Shown here piece by piece: positions 1-50,729 of a stretch of 64,000 bases of DNA (positions within the stretch are counted from its first letter, which is position 1; each line of letters begins with the position of its first letter). The stretch is from NCBI GenBank assembly GCA_017938925.1, contig JAGBAO010000013.1:225037-289036 (forward strand), read 5' to 3'. This DNA comes from Bacteroidales bacterium (GTDB lineage Bacteria; Bacteroidota; Bacteroidia; Bacteroidales; UBA932). Under the pieces are notes generated by a model. The model worked only from the letters and a program-made list of their open reading frames with translations. It made no database searches and was not told the origin of the DNA. The translations under genes and the position numbers were made by a program.

Positions 1-748
1 TCTTTGTCACGAGAGACTCGTCTCCATCCCTGACTTCCGCGGTTATCGAGCCATAGGTTCCCAACGGAGCCGGCACATAGAACGCACCGCTGGCCGCAGG
101 CTCGGTGTTGGTGAAATTGATCGTTACCGTATTGCCCGGCCGGTCATCAGTGACAATTACGGGAGTGTCCGCCGACATGTCGGCCACGAATTCGCCGGTA
201 ATCCTTCTGTCAGCGGTGAAGATGAACTTCATGTCGTCTCCTCCCGCCGGGATGTTGTCCACGCTGATCTTGAAGAAGCTTGCAAGGTGGCTGAGCGTGG
301 CCTTCTCCCCAGCCACCGTTCCTGCCATAGGAGGGTTGAAGCTGTTCGCTTCAGCCTCTATGGAGTCATATGTATATGATGACGGCAGAACATAGGTCAG
401 CTGACCGTCTGTCATCGAATGAGCTCCATGCGGATATACGACATAATCCCCCGGTTCTTCCTCGAACTGACCGGTAAACACTCCCGTAGCCTGGCCGTGG
501 TACCCGTCATTCAGCGTCATCTCCTTGAAACCGTTCACGGTAATGACACCTATCCTGTCTCCACTATGCCAATAGAACGAGTTATCTTCGCCAAATCCCA
601 CACGGGTCTGCTGTCCATCCGCCACCCCGACCGTAAGGACCCTGAGGGTCTCCACTGCCTGAGCAGGCTCGCGTTCCTGTATTTCGTTTTTCTGGCATGC
701 TGACGCCAGTAGTATGGCAAGCGCCATCATATATGCTGTATTTTTCAT
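1..748 (-). CDS. Fimbrillin / type V pilin-like lipoprotein (3' end truncated by window edge)
   Basis: Not in ORF track. Hand translation from ATG at 748: MKNTAYMMALAILLASAC-QKNEIQERE...GQQTRVGFGEDNSFYWHSGDRIGV..., open to position 1. Lipobox, then a T-R site and W-x-x-G-D-x-I motif typical of Bacteroidales fimbrillin N-termini. Confidence 0.8.
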   Translation of the reverse strand, partial: MKNTAYMMALAILLASACQKNEIQEREPAQAVETLRVLTVGVADGQQTRVGFGEDNSFYWHSGDRIGVITVNGFKEMTLNDGYHGQATGVFTGQFEEEPGDYVVYPHGAHSMTDGQLTYVLPSSYTYDSIEAEANSFNPPMAGTVAGEKATLSHLASFFKISVDNIPAGGDDMKFIFTADRRITGEFVADMSADTPVIVTDDRPGNTVTINFTNTEPAASGAFYVPAPLGTYGSITAEVRDGDESLVTK

Positions 749-764
749 ATTGCTGCTGTTTGAT

Positions 765-890
765 TTACATATCCTCCCATCCTTCGATGGACTCTCCTGT
801 GATGCTTGTGACCAGCACCACCTGTTCTGTTTCCATTTTCACGATCTCCGATCTTGGAGATTCATACACTTTTTTTGTTTCCATTTTCAT
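765..890 (-). CDS. 41-aa small protein, YxxP motif, upstream of fimbrillin-like gene
   Basis: Hand translation MKMETKKVYESPRSEIVKMETEQVVLVTSITGESIEGWEDM*. Stop lies 16 nt before the fimbrillin ATG. Same pattern at 12948 and 50729. Confidence 0.75.
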   Translation of the reverse strand: MKMETKKVYESPRSEIVKMETEQVVLVTSITGESIEGWEDM

Positions 891-1055
891 CTCGATTAAA
901 TGCGTGTTCGACAGACATATTCAAACGGGATACCATTATTGCCTATTCACCACAAATATTCTAGAAAGAGGATTATATAGACTGATATGGACCTATATTC
1001 GACGGAGACCGAAACGCACCCCAGACACTCCTGCGACGGGTTTTAAGGCTTTTGG

Positions 1056-1111
1056 GAATCTATATTAGACGCAAGGCCGCAAGCAACCTGCATCCGGATT
1101 AGTTAACTTTG
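1056..1111 (+). promoter_or_regulatory. susC promoter: GAATCTATAT motif (1056-1065) plus -7 box TAACTTTG (1104-1111)
   Basis: Matches Bacteroidota TAnnTTTG consensus. The upstream motif recurs at the same spacing at three other promoters; a related copy CCTATATTCGACG lies at about 992-1004. Confidence 0.65.
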
Positions 1112-1136
1112 TGTGAAACAACGCTATAACCACAGC

Positions 1137-4100
1137 ATGAAAAAGACAATTCTAACTGCCATCCTCATCGGGCTCACAGCCGTGATTGCCTCTGCCCAGA
1201 TCAGAGTCACAGGTGTGGTCCTCGATGAGAACAATCAGCCGATGCCGGGAGCTGCCGTCCTGTTGGACGGAGACACCAGCCATGGCGTCATCACTGATGA
1301 AAACGGACGGTACAACATCACCGTTCCATCCACTGAGTCGGTGCTCAGATATGAGTTCCTGGGCTACTCGCCTGTCAAGATGATGGTCGGCAAGAAGACG
1401 ACTCTCAACGTGAACCTCTCGCCGGACACAAGCTTCCTTGAGGAGGTCGTCGTGATCGGATTCGGAGAGACAAAGAAATCAGACCTCACCGGTTCGGTTT
1501 CCAGCGTACACATGAACAATATCCTCCAGTCCCCTACACTATCGGCCGACCAGGCCCTCCAGGGACGTATCGCCGGAGCGGACATCATGAGCGTATCAGG
1601 AGACCCTACTGAAGGAACATCCATCCGTATCCGCGGTTCCCGTTCCATCGAAGCCTCCAACGAGCCTCTGATCATCGTGGACGGAGTCATGAATGCCGTG
1701 ACATCGCTCGCCGATATCAACTCATCGGACATCGAGAGCATCTCCGTGCTCAAGGATGCGTCTTCAACCGCAATCTACGGTGCCCAGGGCGCCAACGGTG
1801 TCATCATTGTCACCACAAAGACCGGAGAGAACTCGACCACCCGCATCAACGTCAACCTCAGCGTCAAGGCCGGATTCTCCCAGATCCTGCGCACTCTGGA
1901 CGTGATGAATGCAGAGGAGTTCGCCCATTACAACAACGAGCGTCAGCTCTATGCCAAGACTTCCCATCCGGAACCGGGAACAGGATACTATCCCGACTAC
2001 ACCAATTTCAACCACAAGTATGCGGATCCGGCGGCCCTCGGGGAAGGAACCGACTGGATCAAGGCCATGACATACCTCGCGCCTTATCAGCAGTATGATT
2101 TCTCCCTGAACGGAGGTACCAAGAAGACCAACTACTACGGCTCCCTCAGTTATTCCGACAACCAGGGTATCATCCTCGACACCGGCAACAAGCGCGTGGC
2201 CGGAAAGATCACCCTCGGCCACCAGTTCAACAAATGGCTGAAGCTCACCTATGTGAATTCAACCATATATAGAAAGGGACTTCAGAACAAGGCCAACATC
2301 GGAGGAACGAACGTCTGGAACGGAGTGGTATATCTTTCCCCTGTGCTGACCATCGAGGACACTGTGAACGACCTCTACAACTACGGCCAGGGTTCTCCGT
2401 TCAACAACCCTTACATTTCTGTGAAGCAGAGTCAGAAGATCACCGAAACATTCTCAAGTTTCAACATGGTCATGGCACGCATCACCCCGATCAAGGAAAT
2501 GACCATCGAGAGCAAGAACTCATATTATCTCGTGCAGAACCATCAGTACAGATACTATCCGGGATCTCTCCCGGCAAAGGCGGCGGCGAATGCCGGAGGT
2601 GAAGCTCAGAGAGTGGAGCAGGACACACGACAGCTCAGTTCCGACAACACCATCACCTACAAGAACCAGTTCGACAAGAAGCACAACCTCGATGTGATGG
2701 GAGGCTTCTCGATCTACTACAACAACAAGAACTATGAGGGAGTCACGGCAAAGGGTCTCCTCGTGGATGCCCTCACATGGAACGACCTCAGCGGACTCAC
2801 CGACAAGAACAACTATTCGGTGAGTTCATACAACACTCTGGTGAAGAGGATGTCGTTCCTCGCACGCGCGAACTATAATTTCAAGAACAGATACTACTTC
2901 ACCGTGACCGGCCGCGCCGACGGTTCATCCAACTTCGCCGCGAACAGGAAATGGGGATTCTTCCCTTCAGGAGCGTTCAAGTGGAACCTCTCGAAGGAGC
3001 AGTGGGTCAGAAGACTCAACTTCTTCCAGGACCTTTCGCTCAGGCTCAGCGCCGGCCGCACCGGTAACGACGCCATCGCAGCCTACACCTCGCTCTATTC
3101 GATTGACTCGTCATCGGCAGGCTACCTGATTGGAGGCGTCCAGAGCACATATCACTTCCCTAACAGGCTCGCCAGCCCGGATCTGACATGGGAAACCACG
3201 GACATGTACAATGCCGCAATCGACATCGCCATGTTCAAGGGACGACTCAAGATAACAGCCGAGGCATATTATGCCATGACCAAGGACCTGCTTCTCAATG
3301 TGCAGAAGGCACAGCAGACAGGATTCAGCTCATATCGGGAAAACCTCGGAAAGACATCCAACAAGGGTCTGGAACTCTCCATCGAGACCAAGAACATCCT
3401 CAAGAGGAAGTTCTCTTGGACATCAGAGTTTACGCTCGCCCATAACAACCAGATGGTCGAGGACATCGGGACAGAGGATTTCGTCTCCACATACAACGAT
3501 CCTAAGGGATACATGATGTACGGATATGTGGAAGGATACCCTCTCAACTCCCTCTGGGGCTTCCAGTACGGAGGAGTATGGCACAACTACCAGGAAATCG
3601 AGGACAACCAGGTTTCGCGCCAGTTCGTGGACTACTATTCCGAGAACAAGCCTGGAAGGCCTAGATATGTGGACCAGAACCACGACGGAGTCCTCAACAC
3701 CGAAGACCTCGTATATCTCGGGAATGCTGACCCTATATTATATGGAGGTTTCCAGAACAACTTCAACATCTTCGGCGTGAACCTCAGCCTCTACCTGACA
3801 TACTCGCTCGGAGGAAAGATCTACAACTACTCTGAGTTCTATATGGCCGGAACCTACTGTACCAACCAGTACAGCTACATGAAGGACGGCTGGCATCCTC
3901 TGCGTAACCCTGAATCAGACATTCCGGCTCCTGGCTGCAGCGGTTCGAGCATGCTCCCGAGCAACTTCATGGTTCACGATGCCTCGTATATCAGGCTCAA
4001 GAACATCAGCGTCTCATACCCTATCGACCTGAGAAGAATCAGCAAGAAACGCCTGAAGACACTCACAGTGGGATTCAACGTCGATAACGTCTATCTCTGG

Positions 4101-4226
4101 ACACCATACAACGGATTTGACCCTGACGTTTCCACAAGCAGCGACACATCAACCATCAGACGCGCCGACGTGGGAGCATATCCACAGTCAAGAAAATACA
4201 TATTCTCAGCAACCCTCAACTTCTAA
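1137..4226 (+). CDS. SusC/RagA-family TonB-dependent transporter
   Basis: Signal peptide MKKTILTAILIGL..., CarboxypepD-like N-domain, plug motifs (IRIRG, PLIIVDG, SISVLKDASSTAIYGAQGANGVIIVTTK), C-terminal Phe. Start moved from track GTG 1113 to ATG 1137. Confidence 0.95.
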   Translation: MKKTILTAILIGLTAVIASAQIRVTGVVLDENNQPMPGAAVLLDGDTSHGVITDENGRYNITVPSTESVLRYEFLGYSPVKMMVGKKTTLNVNLSPDTSFLEEVVVIGFGETKKSDLTGSVSSVHMNNILQSPTLSADQALQGRIAGADIMSVSGDPTEGTSIRIRGSRSIEASNEPLIIVDGVMNAVTSLADINSSDIESISVLKDASSTAIYGAQGANGVIIVTTKTGENSTTRINVNLSVKAGFSQILRTLDVMNAEEFAHYNNERQLYAKTSHPEPGTGYYPDYTNFNHKYADPAALGEGTDWIKAMTYLAPYQQYDFSLNGGTKKTNYYGSLSYSDNQGIILDTGNKRVAGKITLGHQFNKWLKLTYVNSTIYRKGLQNKANIGGTNVWNGVVYLSPVLTIEDTVNDLYNYGQGSPFNNPYISVKQSQKITETFSSFNMVMARITPIKEMTIESKNSYYLVQNHQYRYYPGSLPAKAAANAGGEAQRVEQDTRQLSSDNTITYKNQFDKKHNLDVMGGFSIYYNNKNYEGVTAKGLLVDALTWNDLSGLTDKNNYSVSSYNTLVKRMSFLARANYNFKNRYYFTVTGRADGSSNFAANRKWGFFPSGAFKWNLSKEQWVRRLNFFQDLSLRLSAGRTGNDAIAAYTSLYSIDSSSAGYLIGGVQSTYHFPNRLASPDLTWETTDMYNAAIDIAMFKGRLKITAEAYYAMTKDLLLNVQKAQQTGFSSYRENLGKTSNKGLELSIETKNILKRKFSWTSEFTLAHNNQMVEDIGTEDFVSTYNDPKGYMMYGYVEGYPLNSLWGFQYGGVWHNYQEIEDNQVSRQFVDYYSENKPGRPRYVDQNHDGVLNTEDLVYLGNADPILYGGFQNNFNIFGVNLSLYLTYSLGGKIYNYSEFYMAGTYCTNQYSYMKDGWHPLRNPESDIPAPGCSGSSMLPSNFMVHDASYIRLKNISVSYPIDLRRISKKRLKTLTVGFNVDNVYLWTPYNGFDPDVSTSSDTSTIRRADVGAYPQSRKYIFSATLNF

Positions 4227-4238
4227 TACACTCAGACC

Positions 4239-5819
4239 ATGAAAAAGATTTTCACATATATGATCCCTCTCTGCATGGCCTTGAGTTCATGCGATTTCCT
4301 TGAGGAGGACCCTAATTCATTCGTGAGCCAGGGAGACTTCTTCAAGTCCGAGCAGCAGTGCCGTTCTGCCGTCAACTCGACCTATACGGGACTCAGAAGC
4401 GTATATTCAACCACCCTGTTCACCCATCTTGAAGGAACGACAGACCTTATCAGGGTGCCGTCGATCTCGGATGTCAACGCCATTCTGGACATCACCCCTT
4501 CCGGCTGCAACATATCAAGGACAGTGTGGTCGCAGGGATACAAGTGCGTGATGTACTCGAACTATGCCATCGCCGGCATCGAGACGGCGCAGATCGACTC
4601 GACAGCATGTCTGAAACTTCTGGCGGAGGCCAAGACGATGAGGGCGTTCTGGTACTACATGCTCACATCATGTTTCGGTGATGTTCCGTTCTACACAATG
4701 GATGTATCTGACGCCGACATCATGAACGAGGTGGCCAAGTACCCCCGTATGTCCGCATATCAGACAAGGAAGGCAATGATCGAAGACCTCCAGTCATGTT
4801 TCCCTTATGACACCGCCGGAAACTACAGGGGCGCACTCGAACAGATCAGGACTTATGAGATGTCAGAAACCGGAAGAGCCGGATGGGCCATGGGAATGAC
4901 TCTGATCGGAAAGATGGCTCTGTGGAATGCATACGACACAGAGCATGCGGACAGTGCGGCATTCTGGTATCAGACCGGTCTTGAGGCCCTGCTGCATGTG
5001 TCCGATGTCTATGGAGAGCTCTCACAGTACCCGCTCGAAGACCTCAAGTTCAAGTACAAGAACACTCCTGAGAGAATCTTCGAGATCCAGCACACATATA
5101 TAAACGGTCAGTTGAACTATTCCGGAGGACTGGCGACCAACTGCATGCCGGCCCACAGCAAGACCACGACAGTGACTGAAGCGGGTGACACCATCGAGGT
5201 GCACAAGTTCAACGGAGTGGAGATTCCGGAACTCGGAACCCAGATGAAGGTGGGAACATGCAACAGGCCCAACAGATATTTCTATCAGGGAATCCAGCCG
5301 GACAACGACACGGACCTCAGGGCCGAACTCAACATGGCACTGGAATATGAGGGAAAGAACTTCTCGAACCGTAGCAATCCTTACATGGGACCTAAGTTCT
5401 GGTGTCCGTACATGTATCAGACAAACGACTCGAACAACTACCCTGTGTTCAGATATGCAGATGTGCTCCTGATGATTGCGGAATGCTACTGCGGACTTCA
5501 GGACCAGGAGAACTATCTCAAATACCTCAATATGGTCAAGGCGCGCGCCGGTCTGAACGAATATGTGTTCCAGAACTGGACAAAGGCCCACAAGGAGATC
5601 CGCGACGAGAGAGCGCGCGAACTCTTCGGAGAGTTCCAGCGAAAGTTCGACCTCGTGCGCTGGGGCATCTGGTACGAGAGCGTCGTGGAGCACACCGACA
5701 TGGAGGAGATTCTCAAGAACATCAAGCCTTGCCACAGATATCTGCCTATCCACGACACTCAGGTGATCTATTCAGGCTATGCACTTGACAACAATGAATA
5801 TAACCAATACGGATTGTAA
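4239..5819 (+). CDS. SusD/RagB-family lipoprotein
   Basis: Lipobox LSSC-DFLEE, AEAKTMRAFWYYML, FRYADVLLMIAE, ERARELFGEFQRKFDLVRWG; directly after SusC. Confidence 0.95.
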   Translation: MKKIFTYMIPLCMALSSCDFLEEDPNSFVSQGDFFKSEQQCRSAVNSTYTGLRSVYSTTLFTHLEGTTDLIRVPSISDVNAILDITPSGCNISRTVWSQGYKCVMYSNYAIAGIETAQIDSTACLKLLAEAKTMRAFWYYMLTSCFGDVPFYTMDVSDADIMNEVAKYPRMSAYQTRKAMIEDLQSCFPYDTAGNYRGALEQIRTYEMSETGRAGWAMGMTLIGKMALWNAYDTEHADSAAFWYQTGLEALLHVSDVYGELSQYPLEDLKFKYKNTPERIFEIQHTYINGQLNYSGGLATNCMPAHSKTTTVTEAGDTIEVHKFNGVEIPELGTQMKVGTCNRPNRYFYQGIQPDNDTDLRAELNMALEYEGKNFSNRSNPYMGPKFWCPYMYQTNDSNNYPVFRYADVLLMIAECYCGLQDQENYLKYLNMVKARAGLNEYVFQNWTKAHKEIRDERARELFGEFQRKFDLVRWGIWYESVVEHTDMEEILKNIKPCHRYLPIHDTQVIYSGYALDNNEYNQYGL

Positions 5820-5820
5820 G

Positions 5821-7788
5821 ATGAAAAGATTTATATACACAGCAGCCATCTGCATACTGGCCCTTGCCTCATGCACAGGCCCTTACGAGACCGATTTCGA
5901 CTTCTGCCTCGACAGGGACGAATGCAGGTTCCCGGCTGACTCGGGACAGTCATATTTCCGTGTCTTCGGAGAAGGGAAATGGACGGCTACTTTCGAACAG
6001 GAAGTCGAGTGGCTCAGCATAGACAAGGCAGAAGGCATGGGAGAAAGCCAGGTGCTTGTCTTCCACAAGAAGAACGAAGGCCTTTCGAGAGGTGTCAACC
6101 TGTTCATCGACCATGAGGACGGAACGAGAAAGACCATATATATGTCGCAGAAGTCAGGACTCGGCACCGACAAACCGGCATTCAGCCTTGCCAGCGAGAC
6201 CATCAAGCTTCTCAACCTGAGCATGTCGACCAAGGTCATGGCCACATCCAATGTCTCTGCCGAGGCTGTGGATTCCGCCCATGTGAAGATCATATATGCG
6301 GGAACTGACACGACCTGGCTCAGCGATGTCAAGATATCCCCGGAAAGCCTTGTCTTCTCTGCGGCATCGAACGAAAGCGGTGCAGAGCGCACGGCAACGA
6401 TCGAGGTATCGTTCAACGGAGCAGTCTGGGCAGAGCCATACACGGTGTTCCTCAACATCATCCAGGGAAGTGCCGGTCCTGAGGTGTCGTTGGAAGACAG
6501 CTACGAACTGGACCCTCTCGGAACCAAGACACTGGAGATCAGCATAGGAACCAACTGGGACACCGGCCTGTATTCATACGATGTCTCCGACTTCAGCATC
6601 TCGGACGAGTCTTTCCTAAGGTCTGTGGAATTCGTGGATTCGACCTCCACACTGAAGGTGCTTCCTTCAATGAACAAGACGAAGGATGCCCGCACGGCCA
6701 CACTCACATGGAACGCCAAGGACTCCGCCGGAAGCATTGTGAGCACGGCAAGTACGACACTTTCGCAGGATGTCTCTCCGATCCAGCTTGACGGAGACCC
6801 TGTCAACCTCACGGAAGGCGGCAGATATGCAAACTGCTACATTCTTCCTGATGCAGGAGATGCATACTACAGCCTGGAACCTAAGCTAGTTTCCGGAAAC
6901 CTTCCAGCCGAAGACATCACCGATGCGAAACTGTTGTGGCAGACCGCCGAAAGCGTTCTTGAATATGTCGCATACAGTCCTCTTGAGGGCATCATGTACA
7001 TCTACAAGCCTGCAGGAGCGAAGGGCAGCGCCATCGTCGCACTGACCTCGGAAGACGGCACCATAAGATGGAGTCTCCATTTCTGGGCAACCGGCGAGTC
7101 AGTGGGCGAATGCACGATCGGAGGCGTCACATTCATGGACAGGAATATCGGAGCGACAGCAGACACGGCACCTGTCAATGGAGAAAATGATGCCGCCGGC
7201 ATGCACTACCAGTGGGGAAGGAAAGATCCGTTCCCTACGAGGGAAAAACTGACAACCAACGACAATGGTGACAAGTACACCTGTCAGACAATGGCTCCTG
7301 TGTATCCGGAAGATGGAGTCAGACTACAGAAGGATACCAAAGGTGTGACTCTTGACTTCACCATAGAGAATCCGGGAACCTATATCTGGAATGGTACTTC
7401 AGATCTTGACTGGTCAAACCCTCAGAACAACGAATACTGGAAACCTGACCATAAGACAGATTATGACCCATGTCCATACGGATATACGGTACCGAGCAAG
7501 GATAATCTGGGAAAAGTTGCCACAGCCATCGGCAAGGCATCCTCAGCATACGCAGGCAGGAACCTGACTTGCGACGACGGGAGCAGTAACTTCTGGTGCT
7601 ACGCAGATATGTATATGAGGAATGAGAACACAGCCACATTCACTAACAATGTCAAGGCGTACTATTGGTCCTCTACAACTGACGGAAAACTTGCATACTA
7701 CCTGAACGATGCATCTGTCACAACCGGCTCCAACATGGGAAGACGAATCGGAATCGCAGTAAGATGTGTCAAAGCCAACAATCAGTAA
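5821..7788 (+). CDS. Surface lipoprotein: BACON domains plus FISUMP/Mfa-like C-terminal domain
   Basis: Start MKRFIYTAAICILALASC at 5821. BACON-like W...WLSI...GxG and N.sg.eR.a.i motifs; C-terminal ANCYI, MDRNIGA, YQWGRKDPF, DPCPYGYTVPS, YYWSST, VRCVK. Confidence 0.75.
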   Translation: MKRFIYTAAICILALASCTGPYETDFDFCLDRDECRFPADSGQSYFRVFGEGKWTATFEQEVEWLSIDKAEGMGESQVLVFHKKNEGLSRGVNLFIDHEDGTRKTIYMSQKSGLGTDKPAFSLASETIKLLNLSMSTKVMATSNVSAEAVDSAHVKIIYAGTDTTWLSDVKISPESLVFSAASNESGAERTATIEVSFNGAVWAEPYTVFLNIIQGSAGPEVSLEDSYELDPLGTKTLEISIGTNWDTGLYSYDVSDFSISDESFLRSVEFVDSTSTLKVLPSMNKTKDARTATLTWNAKDSAGSIVSTASTTLSQDVSPIQLDGDPVNLTEGGRYANCYILPDAGDAYYSLEPKLVSGNLPAEDITDAKLLWQTAESVLEYVAYSPLEGIMYIYKPAGAKGSAIVALTSEDGTIRWSLHFWATGESVGECTIGGVTFMDRNIGATADTAPVNGENDAAGMHYQWGRKDPFPTREKLTTNDNGDKYTCQTMAPVYPEDGVRLQKDTKGVTLDFTIENPGTYIWNGTSDLDWSNPQNNEYWKPDHKTDYDPCPYGYTVPSKDNLGKVATAIGKASSAYAGRNLTCDDGSSNFWCYADMYMRNENTATFTNNVKAYYWSSTTDGKLAYYLNDASVTTGSNMGRRIGIAVRCVKANNQ

Positions 7789-7798
7789 GTTATAAGAC

Positions 7799-11781: not shown

Positions 11782-12749
11782 CACTGAAAAGACTCACCAT
11801 TTTCCTGTTCACGGCCTGCGTTCTCGGATGCCTCTGCACCGGGGCCAAGCCCAAGAGCCAGAAGGTCACCATCAAGGTCGGCTCATATAACCTGATGACC
11901 TCGGACTCACGGGTCAAGCACATCGACAAGACACCTGAAATGTCACATCAGAGATACTGGTGCAACAGCGCTCCGGCCGTGGCATCCATCATCAGCGACA
12001 TGGACTGCGACATCATCGGTCTGCAGGAGATCTGCGACAGTATCTGGGGATGGACGGGAGACAAGGGATTCCGCGAGATGATGACTGCAGCAGGAAATTC
12101 TTCATACAGTTGGGTACTTTACGGAAACAGTTCCAGCGGCAGAAATTCCTACAATGTGGGCATAGGCTACAAGACCGACAAGTTCATCGAACTCGACAGC
12201 GGAATATATTGGCTTGCCGGAATCTTCGACAGGTCAGAATCCCTTCCTACTGCCCCTAAAGGCAGCAAGCGCCCATGCGTCTGGGCAAAGTTCCAGCACA
12301 AGGAATCCGGCAAGATATTCTACTTCTTCAGCACGCACTTCGTGGTTCCCGGCATCTCAAAGGAAGGCAACCAATACAACGCCGAGAACTGCATCAAATA
12401 CGCAGAAGAACTTATGGGTTCGCGCAAGATGCCTTCCATCATTGTCGGTGACTTCAATGCAGCCAAAGGTGCACCGGCTTATAAGGTCGTCGCGGAAAGC
12501 GGCCGATGGTATGATGTATATGAATACCTGAAGGAAGACGGAGTCCTTTCGTCTGAGGAGACCGGATGGGGAAGCTGCAACGACAAGGACGAGAAGAAGT
12601 GGGCCTACTGGCGTCCGGATCACATCACCTGCGACGGCAACTTCCGTCCTGTGTCATTCAAGACGGTACGTGACAAATACCCGACAGCCGACGGCACGCT
12701 GCATTATCCTTCCGACCATTTCCCTATCGTAGCCGAACTGAAATTCTAA
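11778..12749 (+). CDS. Endonuclease/exonuclease/phosphatase (EEP) family protein
   Basis: GSYN, GLQE, STH, GDFN, DHI, SDHFPI motifs. Start MTLKRL at 11778 overlaps the upstream stop. Confidence 0.9.
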   Translation: MTLKRLTIFLFTACVLGCLCTGAKPKSQKVTIKVGSYNLMTSDSRVKHIDKTPEMSHQRYWCNSAPAVASIISDMDCDIIGLQEICDSIWGWTGDKGFREMMTAAGNSSYSWVLYGNSSSGRNSYNVGIGYKTDKFIELDSGIYWLAGIFDRSESLPTAPKGSKRPCVWAKFQHKESGKIFYFFSTHFVVPGISKEGNQYNAENCIKYAEELMGSRKMPSIIVGDFNAAKGAPAYKVVAESGRWYDVYEYLKEDGVLSSEETGWGSCNDKDEKKWAYWRPDHITCDGNFRPVSFKTVRDKYPTADGTLHYPSDHFPIVAELKF

Positions 12750-16741: not shown

Positions 16742-16794
16742 TATCTATGACCTGCATGCTCAACATGGGGTCAAGATTCCCAAGATCAAACAAT

Positions 16795-30544: not shown

Positions 30545-30556
30545 ATTGTGATATTA

Positions 30557-32026: not shown

Positions 32027-32037
32027 AGAAAAGGAGT

Positions 32038-33111: not shown

Positions 33112-33112
33112 A

Positions 33113-34084: not shown

Positions 34085-34088
34085 ATAC

Positions 34089-35873: not shown

Positions 35874-35883
35874 ATGATCTGGA

Positions 35884-38869: not shown

Positions 38870-38893
38870 GCTACATCATAGTAGGAACCGACG

Positions 38894-38930
38894 AAGGGGG
38901 CGCAGCCGGGAGTGGCTCTCCCCCTTTTTT
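38894..38930 (+). terminator. Intrinsic terminator after rpsO
   Basis: AAGGGGG..AGCC / GGCT..CCCCCTT stem followed by a T run. Confidence 0.7.
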
Positions 38931-39076
38931 CACGCAAAGAAGTCTGATGGCGCAGACAACAACCTGCGGCGCCTGAAGAGTGATACATATATATAATAGG
39001 TCAGGTACGATGACCTTGCAGATGAAACAGAATATTAATCCACTCCCATAGGGGGAGGCAGGTTGAAGAAGAAGTA

Positions 39077-44600: not shown

Positions 44601-45693
44601 TGAGGTCAGCGACACTGGGGCAGGCATTCCGGCAGGAAAGCAGGACAGGATCTTCGAGAGGTTCTACCAGATAGACAACGAGCATATCGGAAGTGGTATC
44701 GGTCTTTCGCTGATTCAGAGGCTCGTGGAGCTGCATCACGGTACTATTGATCTTATAAGCGAGGTGAACAAGGGATCCACCTTCATAGTGTCACTCCCTA
44801 TCAGAGAATCTGCGTATTCAATTGAAGAACTCAAAGGAGAGGAGGCTCCTGAGGCTCATACCACCAATCCGCAGGAAATGTATATCCTTGACACCGAGCG
44901 TGAAGTCCTGGAACTGGAAAATCCGGAAAACAAGAAACGGGGCAGACTGCTGATTGCAGAAGACAATGAGGATATCAGGGCATATATGAACGATGGCCTG
45001 GCAAAGATATTCGACATAATGCTTGCAAGAAACGGCGAGGAGGCACTGCAGATGATGAAGGATAATGAGCCTGATCTTGTGATTACAGACATGATGATGC
45101 CTGTGATGGACGGACTGAAGCTGTGTGCTCATCTGAAGCAGAACATAACCACAAGTCATATACCTGTAATCATGCTTTCAGCGAAGACCGACAGCAAGGA
45201 CGAGCTGGAAGCCCTCAGGACCGGTGCTGATGACTATATGGCAAAGCCGTTCTCAATGGCCGTGCTCATCACGAAGATACAGAACATGCTCAGAACCCAG
45301 TATCGTCTCCAGGACAAGATGACAAAATCCATGGAGATTTCTCCCGAAAAGATAAGTTTCAACGCCATGGACGAGCAGATTCTCAACAAGGCAATCAGGA
45401 TTGTCGAACAGAATCTGGACAATGCGGAATTCTCGACAGAGGAGTTTGCCAGGGAAATGAACATGAGCCGCTCCAACCTCCATCTCAAGCTTAAGGCTCT
45501 GACAGGAGAATCCGCCCTTGATTTCATCCGCAAGATACGCTTCAAGGAAGCCTGCAGACTGCTCAAGGACGGACGATACAGTGTCTCCGAAATCAGTGAC
45601 ATGGTAGGCTTCAACACTCCGTCATATTTCGCCACATGCTTCAAGAAATATATGGGATGTCTCCCTACGGAGTATATAAGAAAGAACAATTAG
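41686..45693 (+). CDS. Hybrid two-component system (HTCS), likely heparin-PUL regulator (BT4663-like)
   Basis: Beta-propeller repeats (DGLS, LWIGT), Y_Y_Y domain, TM, SHEMRTPL kinase, receiver TDMMMP, AraC HTH; position relative to the PL12-SusC/D-GH88 cluster. Confidence 0.95.
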   Translation: MKRLVLLTCAAIYSIVMAGATSGLHRDISFTHISINDGLSQSTVRSACQDSRGQMWFATHDGLNRFDGYDFTVYRHRDDDSTSIADNIIRKVYLDSKGGLWVGTEKGLSYYDRDKDSFRNFSTGGKIVTGIAEDSNGRFMVATGGSLRIFNSNTWNWEISAPPCQPETFGATILYRDKEDIWIGTGTDGLFSYSIGSREIKRISAFKSNSSIQCLLNHDGKIWIATEGDGLHSIDLADGSLKVYHHTDAARSLNSNFVRALQTDKDGNLWIGTFNGLSILDGDGFINIKSDPFVHGSLSQSSVRCICRDNQGGMWLGTWFGGINYWHSSRNRFDHIQMQYGGNSLNDNVVSCMAEDKEGTLWIGTNSGGVNHYDPDRNRFTYYKLQPNAETLSLESNDIKAIYIDDEAGRIYIGAHAGGLSIIDRRKKTLSHSKTSGQLDIYAIEPDGKERLILGTLDGLKSFNMLSGAISSLDEDKEGYPIRKLKVRALLKDSRGRLWIGGENGLATYRNTDGQLERCDIQHNASPLQSVFVQSIYESTTKLIWIATRTGLWCYDDKENTFSHYTSADGLANDIIDGIEEDSYGRLWLSTDNGLSCFNPFSGTFRNFSTSDGLQNNQFNPGSHCRRRNGEIMFGGIYGICSFTPSTIEDNPYTPQPIISRLEVFNKPVRPGDGSGILKKSITEADVMTLRHDQNSFTLEFCVTNYLAGRHNTFAYKLDGYDREWYEVKEKRSVSYSNLPHGTYTFMVKAANNDGKWNDTPATLRIRIRPIWYKTIAAITAFSIILLIFLWTLYLFIVERKERENRLELEKQEKSHQEDIHQMKMRFFINISHEMRTPLTLIINPLSEMIGKSNDTWMRKQLRYVERNAKRLLHLVNQLMDYRRAELGVFKLKVQKEDVHKIVKENWSFYEKLAQSKKLRYSLISEMEGKKVHVDGQYLELILNNLLSNAFKYTDEGSITVKVYESEDNLKIEVSDTGAGIPAGKQDRIFERFYQIDNEHIGSGIGLSLIQRLVELHHGTIDLISEVNKGSTFIVSLPIRESAYSIEELKGEEAPEAHTTNPQEMYILDTEREVLELENPENKKRGRLLIAEDNEDIRAYMNDGLAKIFDIMLARNGEEALQMMKDNEPDLVITDMMMPVMDGLKLCAHLKQNITTSHIPVIMLSAKTDSKDELEALRTGADDYMAKPFSMAVLITKIQNMLRTQYRLQDKMTKSMEISPEKISFNAMDEQILNKAIRIVEQNLDNAEFSTEEFAREMNMSRSNLHLKLKALTGESALDFIRKIRFKEACRLLKDGRYSVSEISDMVGFNTPSYFATCFKKYMGCLPTEYIRKNN

Positions 45694-45698: not shown

Positions 45699-45732
45699 AA
45701 GCCGGACTAATAAGTCAAAGTCCGGCTTTTTC
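45699..45732 (+). terminator. Terminator hairpin after HTCS, overlapping the last codons of the convergent pilin-heparinase gene
   Basis: AAGCCGGACT / AGTCCGGCTT stem, 10-nt loop, T run. Confidence 0.7.
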
Positions 45733-48655
45733 CATCTATGGTCACGACGACTTCCGATGCAGAACTTCCGAAGGCAGCGGAAACTGCCGGAGCTGAGGAG
45801 TAGTCCTCAATCGGATATATCACTGTGATGAAACGTACAGGAGTATTTGTTCCGCCTATAGCCACAGCCGTACGGTAGTATTTCCTCTCTGTCTTCATAT
45901 TAATTTCCGAAGACGTATATGAAGTACCGGTAGATGGCGTAAAGTCTTCTGCCGGCACTCTCCCCTTCTCTCCCGCAAAGCAGAATGTCTTGAACATCAT
46001 ATTGTTGCCGTCAGTGAAATTCGTATGACAGCCATAAGCATTGGCGCCATATGCATCAAAGGTGATTTCACCAGGACAAAGATGCCAGCTGATCTCTATG
46101 GATGTGTTCACAGCAGATCCCAAGGCAGAATCAAGAATCACATAATACTTTCCGTCCACCATGAACACCACCCTCTCGTGACGTGTATTGCCATATGACT
46201 GGTTCCTGACATGCACCATCAGGCAGTCCTCAGATTCACTTGAAGTCACATATTCACCTCTCATTCTGCTGTCAGCGACAGTCTCAAGACGACGGGTAAG
46301 GGTATTATGCATGGCGGTAGCACGAAAGGCCTCACGCTCGGAACCGTTGGTATATGTATAGGCACCTGCATCCGGAAGGAAATGACGGCCGTTATGATAC
46401 AGCGACACCGTACCGTTATCCGGCTGACAGTGCCACCATGTTCCCCCATCTGTCTTCACATTATAGTTGTTCTTCAGAACAAGCATCGTGGAGTTCTGAG
46501 TCCAGCCGTTGCGGAGCATATACCATCCTGTGGTCGTATATGCCGAAAGAAGTTCTTCAGGGGCTGTTCCACCGGAGAAACCGCTCGCCCAATACTGCAG
46601 GGTGGGATCATCAGGGAACATCTCCGCATATTTGACAAAGTTCCTGGTGAGGGTCGACCTGTTCCAGCTTGAGGAACGGACATCGTTGAAATCCTCAAGA
46701 GAATAATCAGGATATGCCAGATCCCTGACAAACTTCACAGCCTTCTTCAGATACCGGGTGTAATCTGACGGGAAAACTTCCAGCATGTCATTCACAGAAG
46801 CGACCTTATGCATATCATAGAATATGGACACCATCGGAATATGATAACCTGGATCCATCTCGACCAGCACTCCGTCCTCAGCGAACTGCACCTTGACCTG
46901 GGCTGCAACATCGGCAGATGCCTCGGCAAGCCAGTCCTGAGCAGCCTTGAACTCAGGCATCATGACGGCAGCTGTAAAGACAGCCTGAATCTCATACAGG
47001 CGATGGTTGCTCAACTGCACCGGGTAAGGATTAGCCCTTATGCACTCAACAGCATCCGCATATGCTGCAAGAAAATGCGTCAGGAACTCCGGGGTTAAAC
47101 CCTCGGAACCGATGTAATAGTCCAGAACATCAATCTGATCCATCACACGGGCCGAGGCCTGAAGGTCAGTCCACATGTCATATACCGGACTGGAAGAGGA
47201 CAGCTTGTAATCACCTGTAAGTGCGCCCGGGCAAGGGTGAGCTGCAAGCCATGAGGAATATACCTCGACATACGACCTCGGATACACCTCACTTTTCGTT
47301 CCCCAATAGACCTTGGCCTGAGGCAGCACCCATTGATGACGATGCTTCTGAATGTCGAACTGAGTCTCGCCAGCAAGTGTGATGCTCCAGTTTATACCGC
47401 CTGCACCATCTGAGAAGGAATAATACTGGGCATCCGCATCTGTGTCATTACCTTTTTCCGCATAATTCTTCACATAGAAACGGTAGTCGTTCTCCTTAAG
47501 AGCCTGATCTGCACGGTTTTTTTCGACGGCAGAGTATGAAGTCTGAGTCAGATCGACATTCGGATTGACCACGGCGCGCGATGTCTTCCAATATTCCTTC
47601 AATGCAACTGCGGCTTTATACAACTCCCCTGCCTCATACATCTGCTTGACAGTTTCAAGCCCTTGACATTCAAGGTCAAGAAGAGTAAAGACTCGCGAAT
47701 TGACAAGGGAATTCAGTTTTTCCTTCTCTGCCGGCAGCATATCCTCCTTGGCAGTGGACATATCCACGGCAAAGATGTTGCGCGCATTTCTGCGAAGAGG
47801 GAGAGAACATGATGGTATCTCTCTCACATATACTGCCTTGTCAGTAGTCACCGTCACCTCAAGGGAGGTCAGGGTGCATGGAGCTACTGACAGCCAGACA
47901 CGCAGGTCTCCAGAATCTGTCAACTTCAGATTACCAGACTTGACAAGAATCTCTGATGATGTTTCACCGTCAACCGCAGTCATACTATTGGCGTTCAGAT
48001 CCAACGAGAATTTTCCTGCGAGAGAGACTCCGTCTGAAGCCTTGAATGTCACTGATTCGATTATTTCAGACTCTCCTATCCTCAATGACTTCAAGGTAAT
48101 ATCGGCATGTGCGACGAGACGCGTCCAATAGAGCAACAGGTTGTCTTCCGGCACACCCTTGCATGATTCAATTGTTTTTCCCACCATAAGGTCTGCTGCA
48201 GGATCAAAGGAATCCAAAGCAGGTGTCTGGCAGGACGGAAGTTCGACTGTCACTGCAGGGAGCTTCTCAGTACCGCTTTTTACTGCTGACGAAGGATATA
48301 TGGAGTGAAAGTTCAGGGAACCCTCCAGTGAAGATGGCAGATTGAAAACATACTCAGCCTGAGCCTCGTCTGCTTCCAATGCGTCTGAAATGTACATGGA
48401 GCCATGCCAGTTCTTGTCCTCCTTCAGACATAGGGCGATTTTATCGCCAGCAGACCAGACTATAGTTTCACCATCCCAAAATGTTTTGGACTTCAGGGCA
48501 CAGGTATCGTTCCAGACAGGCATTTCTGATGAAAAGACCACCCTCGTCATCTTGGCAGACGAATCAGGAACGAGCGCATCCTCATGTCTTTGGCAAGAAA
48601 ACAAGGCGACAGCCGCAAACGCAGCTATCGCCTTAATGTGAAAAGTAGGTTTCAT
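45707..48655 (-). CDS. Fimbrillin (type V pilin-like) domain fused to a PL12 heparinase II/III-like lyase; lipoprotein
   Basis: N-terminal ~305 aa: lipobox LFSC, KSKTFWDGETIVWSAGDKI, SIYP, P..QTP...SFDP.AD, RLVA, PLRRN. Remainder: LLDL...GLE.VK, HRHQW, SNH, EMDPGYH, YP.....FND, GWYMLRNGW, HCQPDNGT, PDAG.YTY, HNTL, clearly homologous to 51019 and 61571. Confidence 0.88.
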   Translation of the reverse strand: MKPTFHIKAIAAFAAVALFSCQRHEDALVPDSSAKMTRVVFSSEMPVWNDTCALKSKTFWDGETIVWSAGDKIALCLKEDKNWHGSMYISDALEADEAQAEYVFNLPSSLEGSLNFHSIYPSSAVKSGTEKLPAVTVELPSCQTPALDSFDPAADLMVGKTIESCKGVPEDNLLLYWTRLVAHADITLKSLRIGESEIIESVTFKASDGVSLAGKFSLDLNANSMTAVDGETSSEILVKSGNLKLTDSGDLRVWLSVAPCTLTSLEVTVTTDKAVYVREIPSCSLPLRRNARNIFAVDMSTAKEDMLPAEKEKLNSLVNSRVFTLLDLECQGLETVKQMYEAGELYKAAVALKEYWKTSRAVVNPNVDLTQTSYSAVEKNRADQALKENDYRFYVKNYAEKGNDTDADAQYYSFSDGAGGINWSITLAGETQFDIQKHRHQWVLPQAKVYWGTKSEVYPRSYVEVYSSWLAAHPCPGALTGDYKLSSSSPVYDMWTDLQASARVMDQIDVLDYYIGSEGLTPEFLTHFLAAYADAVECIRANPYPVQLSNHRLYEIQAVFTAAVMMPEFKAAQDWLAEASADVAAQVKVQFAEDGVLVEMDPGYHIPMVSIFYDMHKVASVNDMLEVFPSDYTRYLKKAVKFVRDLAYPDYSLEDFNDVRSSSWNRSTLTRNFVKYAEMFPDDPTLQYWASGFSGGTAPEELLSAYTTTGWYMLRNGWTQNSTMLVLKNNYNVKTDGGTWWHCQPDNGTVSLYHNGRHFLPDAGAYTYTNGSEREAFRATAMHNTLTRRLETVADSRMRGEYVTSSESEDCLMVHVRNQSYGNTRHERVVFMVDGKYYVILDSALGSAVNTSIEISWHLCPGEITFDAYGANAYGCHTNFTDGNNMMFKTFCFAGEKGRVPAEDFTPSTGTSYTSSEINMKTERKYYRTAVAIGGTNTPVRFITVIYPIEDYSSAPAVSAAFGSSASEVVVTIDGKSRTLTY

Positions 48656-48664
48656 TCAGATATA

Positions 48665-50572
48665 TTAAAGAGTACCGTAGTCTACAGAGACGTAGTTGGC
48701 AGCTGCGTAGTTGGCTGTTTCGGGTGAAGCAACGACCTCACGCTGAGCACCGGCAGTATATGTTTTACCATCATAAGTAATTGTATTTAAACTGCAAATC
48801 CCTGAGGCTGGATTCCAATTGCTAACTCTTGGATCATCAATCGATTTAGGATTATTTCCTGTAAAACCATTATATATTTGAACTCCTTTCTCGTAGTCTC
48901 CTTTGTAGAAAAAGTTATTTTCCACAGACACTTCATTAGGGGAAGTCCCCATCACATATTTAAGTCCGCCAGTAATATTTGCTTCCAAGAATACATTGTA
49001 ATTGATAGAGACACTGACACTTGCTTTAGTTGCATTGACTAGAGCTTTGCCTATTGGAGTCTCGTCGAAAGTGTTGTATGAGAGAATAATGCTAGAATAT
49101 TCAACCGTTCCTGAACCGCCATCATTAAGTAAAACAAAACCAGTCATCTCAATTCCTGAATTAACATAGAAGACATTATTGTAAAAGTTTGTATTTACAA
49201 TCTTAGTCCCGGTTTGATTACCAGTAACAAAATTGAAGGTAGCTTTAGGGTTTTGAATCTCTATATCACAACCACTTACAACAAAGTCATTGATTACAAC
49301 AGCTCCATTATTCAGCCTAAGGAATCCGTCTCCAGTATTTATAATCTTACAATTATCGAAGATTATCTTGTCAAAAGTACCGACATTAGCTTTTGTTTCA
49401 ATTCGCTTCAAAGTGTAATGAAGATTTGCACACAAAAATATACCATCTTTGGTATTCGGCTGGGCATTATCATTCTGTACTATTGCGGAGCGTTGTGAAG
49501 AATCCTCTCCAATCAGAATAAGAGAACTTGAATTATAATCAACTGTTGCTGCTATTGATGCTGGCACAAAATATATTCCATCATTTTTGATTGATGAAGT
49601 TTCAGGCCGCACCCTCACTATTGGAAAATTTGAATAGTCTTTAAAAGTGTCTTTATTAAAAGTATATCCCCCAAAAGTAAGATCAAAACCATCATTATAC
49701 TTCACGAAATAGTTCATATGTGGTTCATAATCTGTGCTGGCAAGTTTAGCCATCGGAAGAACCTGATTCCTCTGATTCAGAGATAAAATAGATTTTGTGG
49801 TCTTCTTTGCCACCTGACTGCCATCTTTCATGGAAAGAATGACAGTGAAACCCTCCTCGAACTCGACAGGAACGACTGTAAAGAAATAATCGCCTGGTTC
49901 GAGCACCTTGCCACCATTTCTCAGAGTCACATATGTTTCCGCCTTTGTTACTTTCAGAGTAGGAGACTCAGTAGAAAAGTCAATGGTATAAAGTCCTGCA
50001 AGAGTCTCATTCCTGTTACCCATGAGTGTAATGGATACGACATCCGTAAGATCTTCAGCGAGAGTGAAACGAATATGTGAAGTCATATTCTTGAAAGCAA
50101 GGCGGTTCTCTGCATCAGCCTTTGCCACCATCACAGCACCTCCGTTTCCTTTTGCATATGAACCAAGAACAGCTGCCTGGTCCGGAAACAGCTTTGAAGT
50201 AATGGTCATGGCATCTTTATCAAACTCCGCTGCACTCGTCCTTTCCGGATAAAGAGCATAGAACGCAGTCGCACCCTCTGTCACTTCTCCGGTAAAGACT
50301 GATGTCGCACCACCGACAGCTGTAGTGAAGGTATTCTTGCCTCCGAGATTATCAAATACCGTGATGGCATCGTTTGCTGCCCACTCAACAGTTCCCTCGC
50401 CATCAACGATACCTGCCTTGGTCTCTAAAGCAGTGGTAAACTCCATAGGAACGAGCTTCAGTTCTACGTTCTCCTCAGGATTGTTCTCAGGATTGTTCTC
50501 AGGAAGAACTTCCTTAGCACATGACATTGCCATTACAGCAAGTGCAAGCATGAAAAATGATCTTGTCTTCAT
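48665..50572 (-). CDS. Fimbrillin-like lipoprotein with C-terminal beta-helix-like cargo
   Basis: Start MKTRSFFMLALAVMAMSC at 50572 (the track start overlaps the peptide gene). ETKAG...WAANDAITVF, FYALYP, LAFKNMT, QRNQVL; C-terminal repeats IIFDNCKI / FYNNVFY / SYNTF / VENNFFY. Confidence 0.72.
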   Translation of the reverse strand: MKTRSFFMLALAVMAMSCAKEVLPENNPENNPEENVELKLVPMEFTTALETKAGIVDGEGTVEWAANDAITVFDNLGGKNTFTTAVGGATSVFTGEVTEGATAFYALYPERTSAAEFDKDAMTITSKLFPDQAAVLGSYAKGNGGAVMVAKADAENRLAFKNMTSHIRFTLAEDLTDVVSITLMGNRNETLAGLYTIDFSTESPTLKVTKAETYVTLRNGGKVLEPGDYFFTVVPVEFEEGFTVILSMKDGSQVAKKTTKSILSLNQRNQVLPMAKLASTDYEPHMNYFVKYNDGFDLTFGGYTFNKDTFKDYSNFPIVRVRPETSSIKNDGIYFVPASIAATVDYNSSSLILIGEDSSQRSAIVQNDNAQPNTKDGIFLCANLHYTLKRIETKANVGTFDKIIFDNCKIINTGDGFLRLNNGAVVINDFVVSGCDIEIQNPKATFNFVTGNQTGTKIVNTNFYNNVFYVNSGIEMTGFVLLNDGGSGTVEYSSIILSYNTFDETPIGKALVNATKASVSVSINYNVFLEANITGGLKYVMGTSPNEVSVENNFFYKGDYEKGVQIYNGFTGNNPKSIDDPRVSNWNPASGICSLNTITYDGKTYTAGAQREVVASPETANYAAANYVSVDYGTL

Positions 50573-50585
50573 AATACATCCTCCT

Positions 50586-50729
50586 TTACCAAGCCTGTTC
50601 ATTCAGGAAATCATATTTCTCCAATTCTGTGAATGTGCTCGTGCAGAGCAAGTCATGAGGGACTAACTCCATCTCCATGACATAAGGGGTCTCATATTGA
50701 TTGTCCCTTTCGAAAGTCTTGAAATTCAT
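50586..50729 (-). CDS. 47-aa small protein, YxxP...LLCxS motif
   Basis: Hand translation MNFKTFERDNQYETPYVMEMELVPHDLLCTSTFTELEKYDFLNEQAW*. Stop is 13 nt before the fimbrillin ATG. Confidence 0.8.
   Translation of the reverse strand: MNFKTFERDNQYETPYVMEMELVPHDLLCTSTFTELEKYDFLNEQAW

Follow-up and report, generated by a model that had tools for sequence, protein, structure and literature searches.

A modular cassette of a small acidic open reading frame, pilin-like lipoprotein modules and variable cargo beside polysaccharide utilization loci of a Bacteroidales genome

Type V pili are adhesive fibres with ligand-binding tip heads, and the surface enzymes of polysaccharide utilization loci (PULs) are seen as simple lipid-anchored proteins. 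The stretch of DNA analysed here, referred to as the window, comprises 64,000 nucleotides (nt) of an uncultured gut Bacteroidales bacterium (UBA932 lineage; GenBank assembly GCA_017938925.1, contig JAGBAO010000013.1, positions 225,037 to 289,036 of the forward strand). Three instances of a modular cassette for surface display, which occurs widely across the Bacteroidales, were recognised in the window; each is composed of a small acidic open reading frame (ORF), a pilin-like lipoprotein module and variable C-terminal cargo. An earlier note, made from the letters of the window alone, had described four pilin-like genes in three cassettes; all four genes (lipoproteins A to D) and the three small ORFs (P1 to P3) were confirmed in place (Table 1).

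It is established that some tip pilins bear an additional ligand-binding domain at the C-terminus, among them tips diversified by diversity-generating retroelements (DGRs) (PMC12632263; DGR preprint). The proteins of the window resemble the type V tip pilins (BovFim1C; BfrT/BthT/BunT; Mfa3-5) in their lipobox precursor, double beta-sandwich, Lys/Arg loop and C-terminal non-pilin domain, and their differing C-terminal cargo fits the tip-like role that had been proposed for them rather than a classical stalk role. They differ from the known tips in that the cargo includes a complete polysaccharide lyase family 12 (PL12) enzyme and beta-helix-like domains rather than lectin-type heads, in that the genes are linked to PULs without anchor or stalk genes, and in that a dedicated small ORF comes first and, in D, a tail follows the cargo. 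The best profile and structure matches, in which the whole ~260-residue module is aligned, are PF13149 and the 'putative cell adhesion' proteins 4K4K, 3UFI and 3SY6; however, those proteins are cargo-less and ~280 amino acids (aa) long, and A to D miss the Pfam model.

The heparin/heparan sulfate PUL of Bacteroides thetaiotaomicron, BT4652-BT4675 (Cartmell et al. 2017), reportedly encodes a surface PL12, the surface glycan-binding protein (SGBP) BT4661, SusC/D, GH88 and a hybrid two-component regulator (HTCS). The heparin-type PUL of the window likewise includes PL12 lyases, a BT4661-like SGBP, SusC/D, GH88 and an HTCS beside a lipoprotein PL12. In contrast, the surface PL12 of the window carries a 304-residue pilin-like module at its N-terminus, and its predicted operon also encodes a small ORF and a beta-helix-like protein that is itself pilin-fused; this trio is conserved in the lineage. 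A literature search returned no report of a PUL in which a carbohydrate-active enzyme (CAZyme) is fused to a pilin module, and none that describes the small ORF family or the tail rule set out below. In a heparin-type PUL, the presence of a conserved PL12 heparinase and its companion on pilin modules with a retained maturation site suggests that PULs reuse pilus parts for enzyme display, and raises the question of whether some PUL enzymes are displayed, linked or shed by pilus-type strand exchange.

The module common to A, B, C and D comprises the N-terminal ~265-300 aa. The relatedness of the N-termini claimed in the earlier note was upheld, with pairwise identities of 24-29% (BLASTP), and the four modules align with the common motifs T[KR], W..GD.I, Y.YP, LAFKN and LAG. 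No direct match to Pfam or NCBIfam was obtained for the modules of A to D, and there was no match to PF13149 (Mfa_like_1, 'Fimbrillin-like') at E<=0.1; this family was reached by 3/71 relatives, with a best E of 1e-7. A module profile, built from the four modules and three homologues, was searched against 1.84 billion cluster representatives and matched 17,614 of them at E<=1e-3 and 11,207 at E<=1e-10. The matches were always at the N-terminus (residues ~18-285) of proteins with total lengths of 247-1296 aa. The module family, with at least 17,600 clusters at 50% identity, is barely recognised by Pfam, and many 'hypothetical lipoproteins' of gut and rumen Bacteroidales may be open to re-interpretation.

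A 25-sequence profile searched against PDB sequences matched 4K4K (BACUNI_00621) with an E of 6e-6 over 210 residues; no PDB sequence was matched by the D-family profile or by B. Word-indexed homologue searches returned few homologues (4, 8 and 31 matches), and the alignments behind the AlphaFold2 models were therefore shallow, at 10-11 rows. The predicted local distance difference test score (pLDDT) was 80-87 for the D module, and the C module had a mean pLDDT of 81 and a predicted template modelling score (pTM) of 0.79. When the predicted D and C models were used as Foldseek queries, the best PDB matches were all type V pilins, including the top 14 for C, with E values of 1e-8 to 1e-3 and template modelling (TM) scores of 0.3-0.56 (0.45-0.56 for the top matches). 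The matches included 4K4K, 3SY6 (BF1861), 3UFI, 3T2L, 4H40, 5NFI (Mfa2), 4EPS, 5NF4 (Mfa3), 5CAG, 4QB7, 4QDG, 3PAY and 6JZK (FimA prepilin). By sequence profile and by predicted fold, the module belongs to the type V pilin superfamily and is modelled as two transthyretin-like beta-sandwich domains.

The features associated with pilin maturation are also retained. The module begins with a signal peptide that contains a lipobox Cys, followed by acidic residues, an anchor strand and a flexible [TS]-[KR] loop. The lipobox Cys is present in all four proteins (A ..LLASAC, B ..TVAFSC, C ..ALFSC, D ..AMSC) and a lipobox-like motif in 127/149 cluster representatives, and in most relatives 1-3 of the six residues that follow the Cys are acidic. 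Of 153 members, 149 have the motif [TS]-[KR]-[TVA], with K/R at the aligned site, at a median of 30 residues past the Cys, and the K/R site sits in a low-pLDDT loop after strand 1 in both the D and the C model. The cut positions of FimA (Arg46) and Mfa1 (Arg49) are the counterpart of this loop; anchor pilins are without a cleavage site, and tip pilins are without donor strands (PMC13655056). The pilin-like character that had been read from the N-termini is supported by the fold, the profile, the lipobox and the Lys/Arg loop.

The cargo of C is a PL12 enzyme, with matches to PF16889 (E 5e-85; 286 bits, cut-off 22) and PF07940 (E 5e-23; 82 bits, cut-off 24). Residues 305-982 of C align to residues 34-700 of the solved heparinase III 4FNV (E 2e-113), the first 304 residues are absent from solved heparinase III chains, and the C-terminus of the protein falls inside the PL12 fold. 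Against the HepC equivalog of NCBIfam, C scored 507 bits, under the cut-off of 600, and the exact substrate class of C is therefore not assured. The cargo of D showed a sub-threshold Pfam match to DUF4957 (E 0.017); its AlphaFold2 model was poor (pLDDT 25-65), such that the fold could not be named from the model, and the sole beta-helix match by Foldseek was isopullulanase 3WWG (E 0.36). No match to the cargo of B was found in Pfam, NCBIfam or the PDB sequence search. The cargo of A was without a match in Pfam and NCBIfam, and its full-length representative, P0110, was without a Pfam family. The earlier note had listed the cargoes as two beta-helices and one PL12; the PL12 of C is confirmed by Pfam and 4FNV, whereas the beta-helices of D and B are plausible from a repeat pattern, which is weak evidence.

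The cargo of the relatives is diverse. A BspA-type leucine-rich repeat (LRR) domain (LRR_5) was found in 27/71, and DUF4957, M64 peptidase, CotH, Lcl_C and Big_2 were also represented. The shortest complete members (~363 aa) still bear a small extra C-terminal domain. The closest loci stem from metagenome-assembled genomes of sheep, buffalo, horse and 'Candidatus Cryptobacteroides' origin. When the window was compared with two related loci, L001 and L002, the flanking genes were 77-95% identical and the D module was 62-98% identical (50-aa bins), whereas the D cargo was only 20-60% identical. The GC content was 0.36 in the D cargo and 0.40 in the B cargo, compared with ~0.50 in the flanks. A hypervariable, AT-rich cargo behind a conserved module looks like cargo replacement or diversifying selection and points to cargo swapping at fixed PUL positions, in agreement with the proposal that the cargoes are interchangeable.

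Each cassette begins with a homologous acidic ORF of 41-47 aa, separated by 11-16 nt from the start of the lipoprotein gene. Public assemblies list all three peptides as genes, which fall into clusters of near-identical variants with the ORF intact (14 for P1, 10 for P2 and 36 for P3), and were matched by a peptide hidden Markov model (HMM) with E values of 6e-11, 3e-14 and 1e-18, respectively. Locus surveys were built on the D subfamily and on an LRR-type subfamily. A homologous small ORF was present directly upstream of the D homologue (29-66% identical to D) in 17/17 genome loci, and the HMM made from the D-locus ORFs also identified the family upstream of the LRR-type module subfamily (80 metagenome loci). 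The sole broken copy among the 17 D loci, at L005 6871-6972, is only 33 aa long, owing either to a frameshift or to faulty assembly. Among related DNA totalling 726 kb, 84/84 peptide-HMM matches with >=400 nt downstream precede a module ORF. The small ORF is an exclusive partner of the module genes. A peptide ORF was detected before 76/147 module genes with enough upstream sequence, with a gap mode of 13-16 nt. The peptide had previously been reported in all three cassettes, which is correct, but its deep conservation and exclusive partnership with the module had been under-rated.

Three HMM iterations yielded 66 unique peptides with a median length of 46 aa and a median net charge of -7, none of which has a hydrophobic segment. 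The Tyr and Pro of a Y-x-x-P motif are present in all 66, a Glu in 56, a Ser in 48, a second Glu in 63 and a C-terminal Trp in 54, and V/I/L occurs two residues past the Pro (Y-x-x-P-x-[VIL]). The tail codons vary synonymously and, judged from the sequences, the small ORF is under protein-level selection. The junction is usually TGG TAA, followed by 8-20 nt, often with AGGAGG, and the ATG. Shine-Dalgarno-like sequences are rarely used in Bacteroidota. An AGGAGG or GGAGG element between the peptide stop and the lipoprotein ATG was seen in the window (50573-50585) and at L001, L002, L003, L009, L010, L012, L014 and L015. The peptides belong to no Pfam or NCBIfam family, and the peptide profile had no match among PDB sequences. 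Fragments of D and PL12a from related strains were found in two bovine metatranscriptomes; neither the peptide nor a junction is spanned by any of these fragments. At ~45 aa, the small ORF is a candidate for a new small-protein partner or translational control element in Bacteroidota.

Two other origins or functions of the peptide were considered and rejected. The peptide was not a mimic of the anchor strand of its own lipoprotein, as cognate pairs scored 18.39 and non-cognate pairs 18.43 (46 unique pairs; permutation p 0.53). It was also not explained as the remnant of an upstream pilin, since the matches of the HMM to large ORFs were confined to the final ~15-20 residues and fell short of significance; the conserved start codons and the YxxP half likewise rule out the remnant idea as a full explanation.

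The peptide bears a likeness to the leaders of lasso peptides and LPPs, which bind RiPP recognition elements (RREs) through the motif [Y/W]xxPx[L/V/I/F/A] (PMC13381572), RiPPs being peptides that are made by the ribosome and then modified post-translationally. It shares with these leaders the Y-x-x-P-x-[VIL] motif, a Glu and a Ser ~13-19 residues on, and a leaderless length of ~45 aa. The lasso leader models NF033521 and NF033528 of NCBIfam were near-misses on exactly the YxxP stretch, where they scored 12 bits (E ~0.1; cut-offs 19 and 33). In contrast to the known leaders, the peptide has a single kind of neighbour gene and no biosynthetic genes nearby: gene annotation revealed no RRE, cyclase, leader peptidase or transporter gene in the window or beside the annotated relatives' cassettes.

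The C-terminus of the upstream protein varies with the gene that follows it. All D homologues with a module gene downstream (10/10) end in ..Y.Y....[DE]LG.[LFY], the example of the window being NYVSVDYGTL, followed by C. In 5/6 D homologues without a downstream module gene, the protein stops soon after a GA[KQ]R motif and the tail is absent (Fisher's exact p ~0.001, uncorrected for the relatedness of the 16 loci). Some large ORFs upstream of module genes finish with a peptide-like tail, such as a 658-aa module protein ending ..GNLENPEEGEESEW and a cargo-less PF13149 lipoprotein at L031 ending ..SNMENPIEVEEFEW. The C-terminus of Mfa1 is buried in the acceptor subunit, and deletion of the last residue alone abolishes polymerisation (PMC13655056). 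The conserved D tail is hydrophobic or aromatic and donor-like in appearance. Read most simply, these sequences show a donor-acceptor type of match between the C-terminal tail of one product and the module encoded directly downstream. As the tail of the upstream ORF tracks the downstream module, local pairing is indicated rather than a remote pilus, and as the small ORF follows the same rule, the tail of the peptide is probably the functional part. At L010 4563-14940 and L012 7001-15956, three or four module genes stand in tandem with differing cargo (D-type, another type and PL12 types), and a peptide ORF is present only before the D-type members.

The reading that we favour, although at slightly less than even confidence, is that the cassettes encode short self-contained strand-exchange assemblies of surface lipoproteins, for example with the D tail in the C module. 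The lipoproteins would be exported to the cell surface, a pilin-processing protease would cut at the Lys/Arg loop, and donor-strand exchange would hold the proteins in short local assemblies and not on a remote long pilus. The D tail would dock into the module of the downstream-encoded C, and the resulting D-C complex would place a heparinase, together with a beta-helix domain, next to the SusC/D transporter. The peptide tail might act as a capping or donor peptide, if the peptide is exported by means of its RiPP-leader-like YxxP half; alternatively, the nascent chain might control coupled translation.

Several observations weigh against strand-exchange assemblies. All of the steps after export are ones that we infer from sequence, and C and the other cargo proteins could simply stay lipid-anchored. 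The peptide is without a signal sequence, and a donor or cap role would therefore require an exporter; no RRE, peptidase or transporter gene was found near the cassettes in the window or at the annotated loci. Known donor strands are hydrophobic beta-strands, whereas the tails of the peptides are acidic with a high content of Pro and Gly. Only about half of the module genes have a detectable peptide ORF, L003 is an exception to the tail-module rule, and in many tandem arrangements no tail could be recognised on the protein encoded ahead of the module gene. Furthermore, the correlation between tail and module was obtained from related loci without phylogenetic correction.

A rather unlikely alternative is that A to D are monomeric lipid-anchored PUL proteins, the module being a pedestal and the K/R a relic, and that the small ORF is a cis-acting upstream ORF that gates or couples translation. 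Ig-like N-terminal spacers are common in Bacteroidota surface enzymes and glycan-binding proteins, such as SusE-like enzymes. The tight, stereotyped stop-to-start gap, the TGG TAA junction with an AGGAGG-type element after it and the lack of an export signal on the peptide are consistent with translational control, and the occurrence of the like tail at the end of large ORFs is what an effect of the nascent chain on termination would predict. Regulatory upstream ORFs and arrest peptides include TnaC, SpeFL and MgtL, which the small ORF resembles as a short conserved ORF ending a few nt before the gene, with a C-terminal Trp and acidic residues. However, the strongest conservation in the peptide is at Y..P, ~35 residues from the stop and not beside the peptidyl-transferase centre, the length of the middle varies, and the tail also occurs on large secreted proteins. 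The tail type (W-ending or LG.[LFY]-ending) changes with the downstream module, which a single ribosome mechanism would not need, and C-type module genes follow D without any W-tail. In addition, it would be difficult to account for a K/R that is kept in 97% of members, within a flexible loop, if no cleavage took place; uncut anchor pilins are without the site (PMC13655056).

The model of the earlier note, in which the proteins are interchangeable, PUL-induced tip subunits on a long pilus whose stalk and anchor are encoded at another place in the genome (an 'enzyme on a pilus'), is unlikely. It is consistent with the pilin fold, lipobox and K/R loop of the module, with the presence of Mfa3 among the structural matches, and with the C-terminal cargo, as tip pilins are without donor strands and typically have an extra C-terminal domain (PMC13655056, PMC12632263, DGR preprint). 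At L031, a cargo-less PF13149 pilin of 288 aa (640-1503; Pfam E 4e-38) lies immediately upstream of a module gene. However, known tip genes end operons that contain anchor and stalk genes (DGR preprint), and Pfam and the module HMM identified no other pilin-like ORF in the 64-kb window and no stalk or anchor gene either there or in the ~10 kb beyond its start, which are covered by the parent-contig locus L021 (513-kb contig). The lone plain pilin at L031 was the only one (PF13149) among 10 neighbour ORFs tested at other loci. A remote pilus would also leave the exclusive small ORF and the C-linked D tail unexplained. The pilin-type modules with cargo and the lack of a stalk or anchor pilin in the window stand as first described, and the latter, extended beyond the window, counts against the pilus encoded elsewhere.

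It is more doubtful still that the small ORF is a free 'tail' subunit for the pilin-like modules. The YxxP half would be a RiPP-type leader for export and removal, and the acidic, Trp-ending half would fill the site of a neighbouring pilin's C-terminus on the cleaved module. Each two-gene cassette would then be self-contained and would cap, stabilise or release a surface enzyme or adhesin, and the series peptide>D>C would amount to short enzyme-bearing pili without stalk or anchor genes.

The least probable proposal, which is compatible with the other readings, is that the small ORFs are scattered RiPP-type precursors, with a YxxP..E..S leader bound by an RRE protein elsewhere, an exported Trp-ending half and a lipoprotein linkage due to co-expression or a common surface function, for which the invariant leader motif, the sub-threshold lasso matches, the conserved Ser at the junction and the conserved Glu in the tail can be cited, but which is very improbable in view of the scores under the cut-offs, the lack of RRE, cyclase, leader peptidase or transporter genes beside the inspected cassettes and a module gene as sole conserved neighbour (84/84), which a free-standing natural product would not need.

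Table 1. Features of the window, with a gene map based on a Pfam scan of all large ORFs (positions are those of the window).
Feature	Position	Strand	Remarks
Lipoprotein A	748->1	-	249 aa inside window; pilin-like N-module, module HMM E 4e-51
P1, small ORF	765-890	-	41 aa, MKMETKKVYESPRSEIVKMETEQVVLVTSITGESIEGWEDM; ends 16 nt before A start
TCTATAT-type repeats, A/susC1 divergent region	975-981 (TCTATAT); 993-999, 1059-1065 (CCTATAT)	-; +	
Paired TCTATAT regions	975-1065, 12760-12856, 16623-16696, 38283-38366		
-7 box TAACTTTG	1104-1111	+	TAnnTTTG match; upstream of susC1
PUL1	1113-12749	+	susC, susD, BACON protein, DUF5689 protein, metallophosphatase, EEP phosphatase/nuclease (Pfam)
Two GAATCTATAT repeats	12760-12766, 12850-12856	+	upstream of cassette B
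-7 box TAAATTTG	12894-12901	+	46 nt before P2 start codon
P2, small ORF	12948-13091	+	47 aa; ends 11 nt before B start
Lipoprotein B	13103-15334	+	downstream of PUL1
B, N-terminal part	13103-13966	+	signal peptide, lipobox Cys, type V pilin-like module, ETK|T maturation-type site
B, cargo	13967-15334	+	repeats resembling parallel beta-helix (sequence pattern only); GC 0.40
PDDEXK_2 gene	15430-16407	-	transposase-like (Pfam); neighbours cassette B
GH3 gene (GH3a)	16747-19122	+	Pfam
Long operon	19128-38208	-	GH78, DUF6377 regulator, FAD oxidoreductase, GH97, GH30, GH39-like, GDSL esterase, EEP, GH3
rpsO and PNPase	38596-41410	+	Pfam
HTCS	41686-45693	+	Pfam; adjoins C, as in heparin-type PULs
Lipoprotein C	45707-48655	-	begins 9 nt after D
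C, cargo	45707-47743	-	complete PL12 heparinase III
C, N-terminal part	47744-48655	-	signal peptide, lipobox Cys, type V pilin-like module, KSK|T site
Lipoprotein D	48665-50572	-	probable Met11 start; program-listed ORF begins at 50602
D, cargo	48665-49726	-	beta-helix-like, weak DUF4957 match; ends in tail ..NYVSVDYGTL
D, N-terminal part	49727-50572	-	signal peptide, lipobox Cys, type V pilin-like module, ETK|A site; module HMM E 3e-78
P3, small ORF	50586-50729	-	47 aa; stop, then 13 nt (AGGAGGATGTATT), then D ATG
-7 box, CAAATTTA on + strand = TAAATTTG	50800-50807	-	for P3-D-C operon; conserved in L001, L002
Direct repeat GACATTT(T/C)TGA x2	50900-50931	+	21 nt apart; candidate regulator site; partly conserved in L001, L002
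Heparin-type PUL	50989-63583	+	PL12, BT4661-like SGBP, susC, susD, GH88, PL12

Cassette 1 (P1-A) is divergent from susC, which starts at 1113. Lipoprotein A is cut by the window start, and its full length on the parent contig is 590 aa. Met11 is the probable true start of D, since the 635-aa form is on public record. Cassette 3 (P3-D-C) is divergent from the PL12-SGBP-susC-susD-GH88-PL12 heparin-type operon, in which the SGBP is BT4661-like with a Pfam E of 4e-160. The adjacency of the HTCS and C is kept in relatives. A further cassette was observed on the same contig, ~5-9 kb outside the first base of the window (L021 15564-19460). It includes a pilin-like module fused to DUF4886 (787 aa), a 44-aa ORF with a weak peptide-HMM match (E 1e-3) and a 459-aa module protein. 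With this cassette counted, there are at least four within ~85 kb.

The association with heparin-type PULs extends to relatives. D homologues are located in such PULs at 15/17 loci, and the order peptide-D-C recurs in the window and at L001, L002, L006, L009, L015, L016 and L018-L020, in the last three of which it comes after susC-susD-PL8. In the LRR-type subfamily, a susC/D-like ORF was present within 3 kb at 2/80 loci, from which the cassette appears to be a general display device with the PUL-embedded enzyme version as one branch. The attachment of the cassettes to PULs, as first claimed, holds for P3-D-C in relatives; the wider family is not generally linked to PULs.

The analysis of intergenic motifs links two of the cassettes to PUL1. 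TCTATAT shows strong enrichment between genes: of the 18 copies in the window, 8 lie within 2,585 intergenic bases (4% of the window), and ATCTATAT was present in 7 copies versus 1.7 expected. The sequence TAnnTTTG is the Bacteroides -7 box consensus of sigma-A promoters. At susC1, cassette B, GH3a and the GH3b operon, a TAnnTTTG box is preceded, at a distance of ~40 nt, by a pair of (GAA)TCTATAT repeats, and the cassette A strand carries one TCTATAT copy. The pair upstream of B, arranged as at susC1, agrees with the earlier report that this cassette has its own copies of the PUL promoter motif. Given the TCTATAT signal in common with PUL1, cassettes A and B look like members of the PUL1 regulon, and the paired repeats join PUL1 and cassette B with the GH3 gene that starts at 16747 and with the glycosidase operon of 19 kb on the minus strand in what is apparently one regulon. 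The DUF6377 protein (23390-24982, inside the glycosidase operon) is the only candidate regulator nearby. TCTATAT is absent from the heparin cassette, which has a 259-bp control region in common with the PL12-SGBP-susC operon; the GACATTT(T/C)TGA repeats in Table 1, which lie in this region, are a candidate regulator site.

PUL1 (1113-12749) and the heparin-type PUL (50989-63583, with its HTCS at 41686-45693) were both classed as PULs, loci recognised by an adjacent susC/susD pair with CAZymes and a regulator. Besides SusC/D, PUL1 encodes BACON and DUF5689 proteins, a metallophosphatase of calcineurin-like type and an EEP nuclease/phosphatase, and is without a glycoside hydrolase. This phosphatase and nuclease content, without a glycoside hydrolase, suggests a phosphodiester-containing substrate, such as nucleic acid or phosphoglycan. 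Long inverted repeats of 70-75% identity were identified at 11872-12066 versus 35615-35809 and at 16954-18420 versus 36592-38052; these are paralogous EEP and GH3 genes in opposite orientation, flanking the glycosidase operon. A tandem repeat of 12 nt (ATCCCTGyTCCA, four copies) is present at 15528-15575, within the PDDEXK_2 gene.

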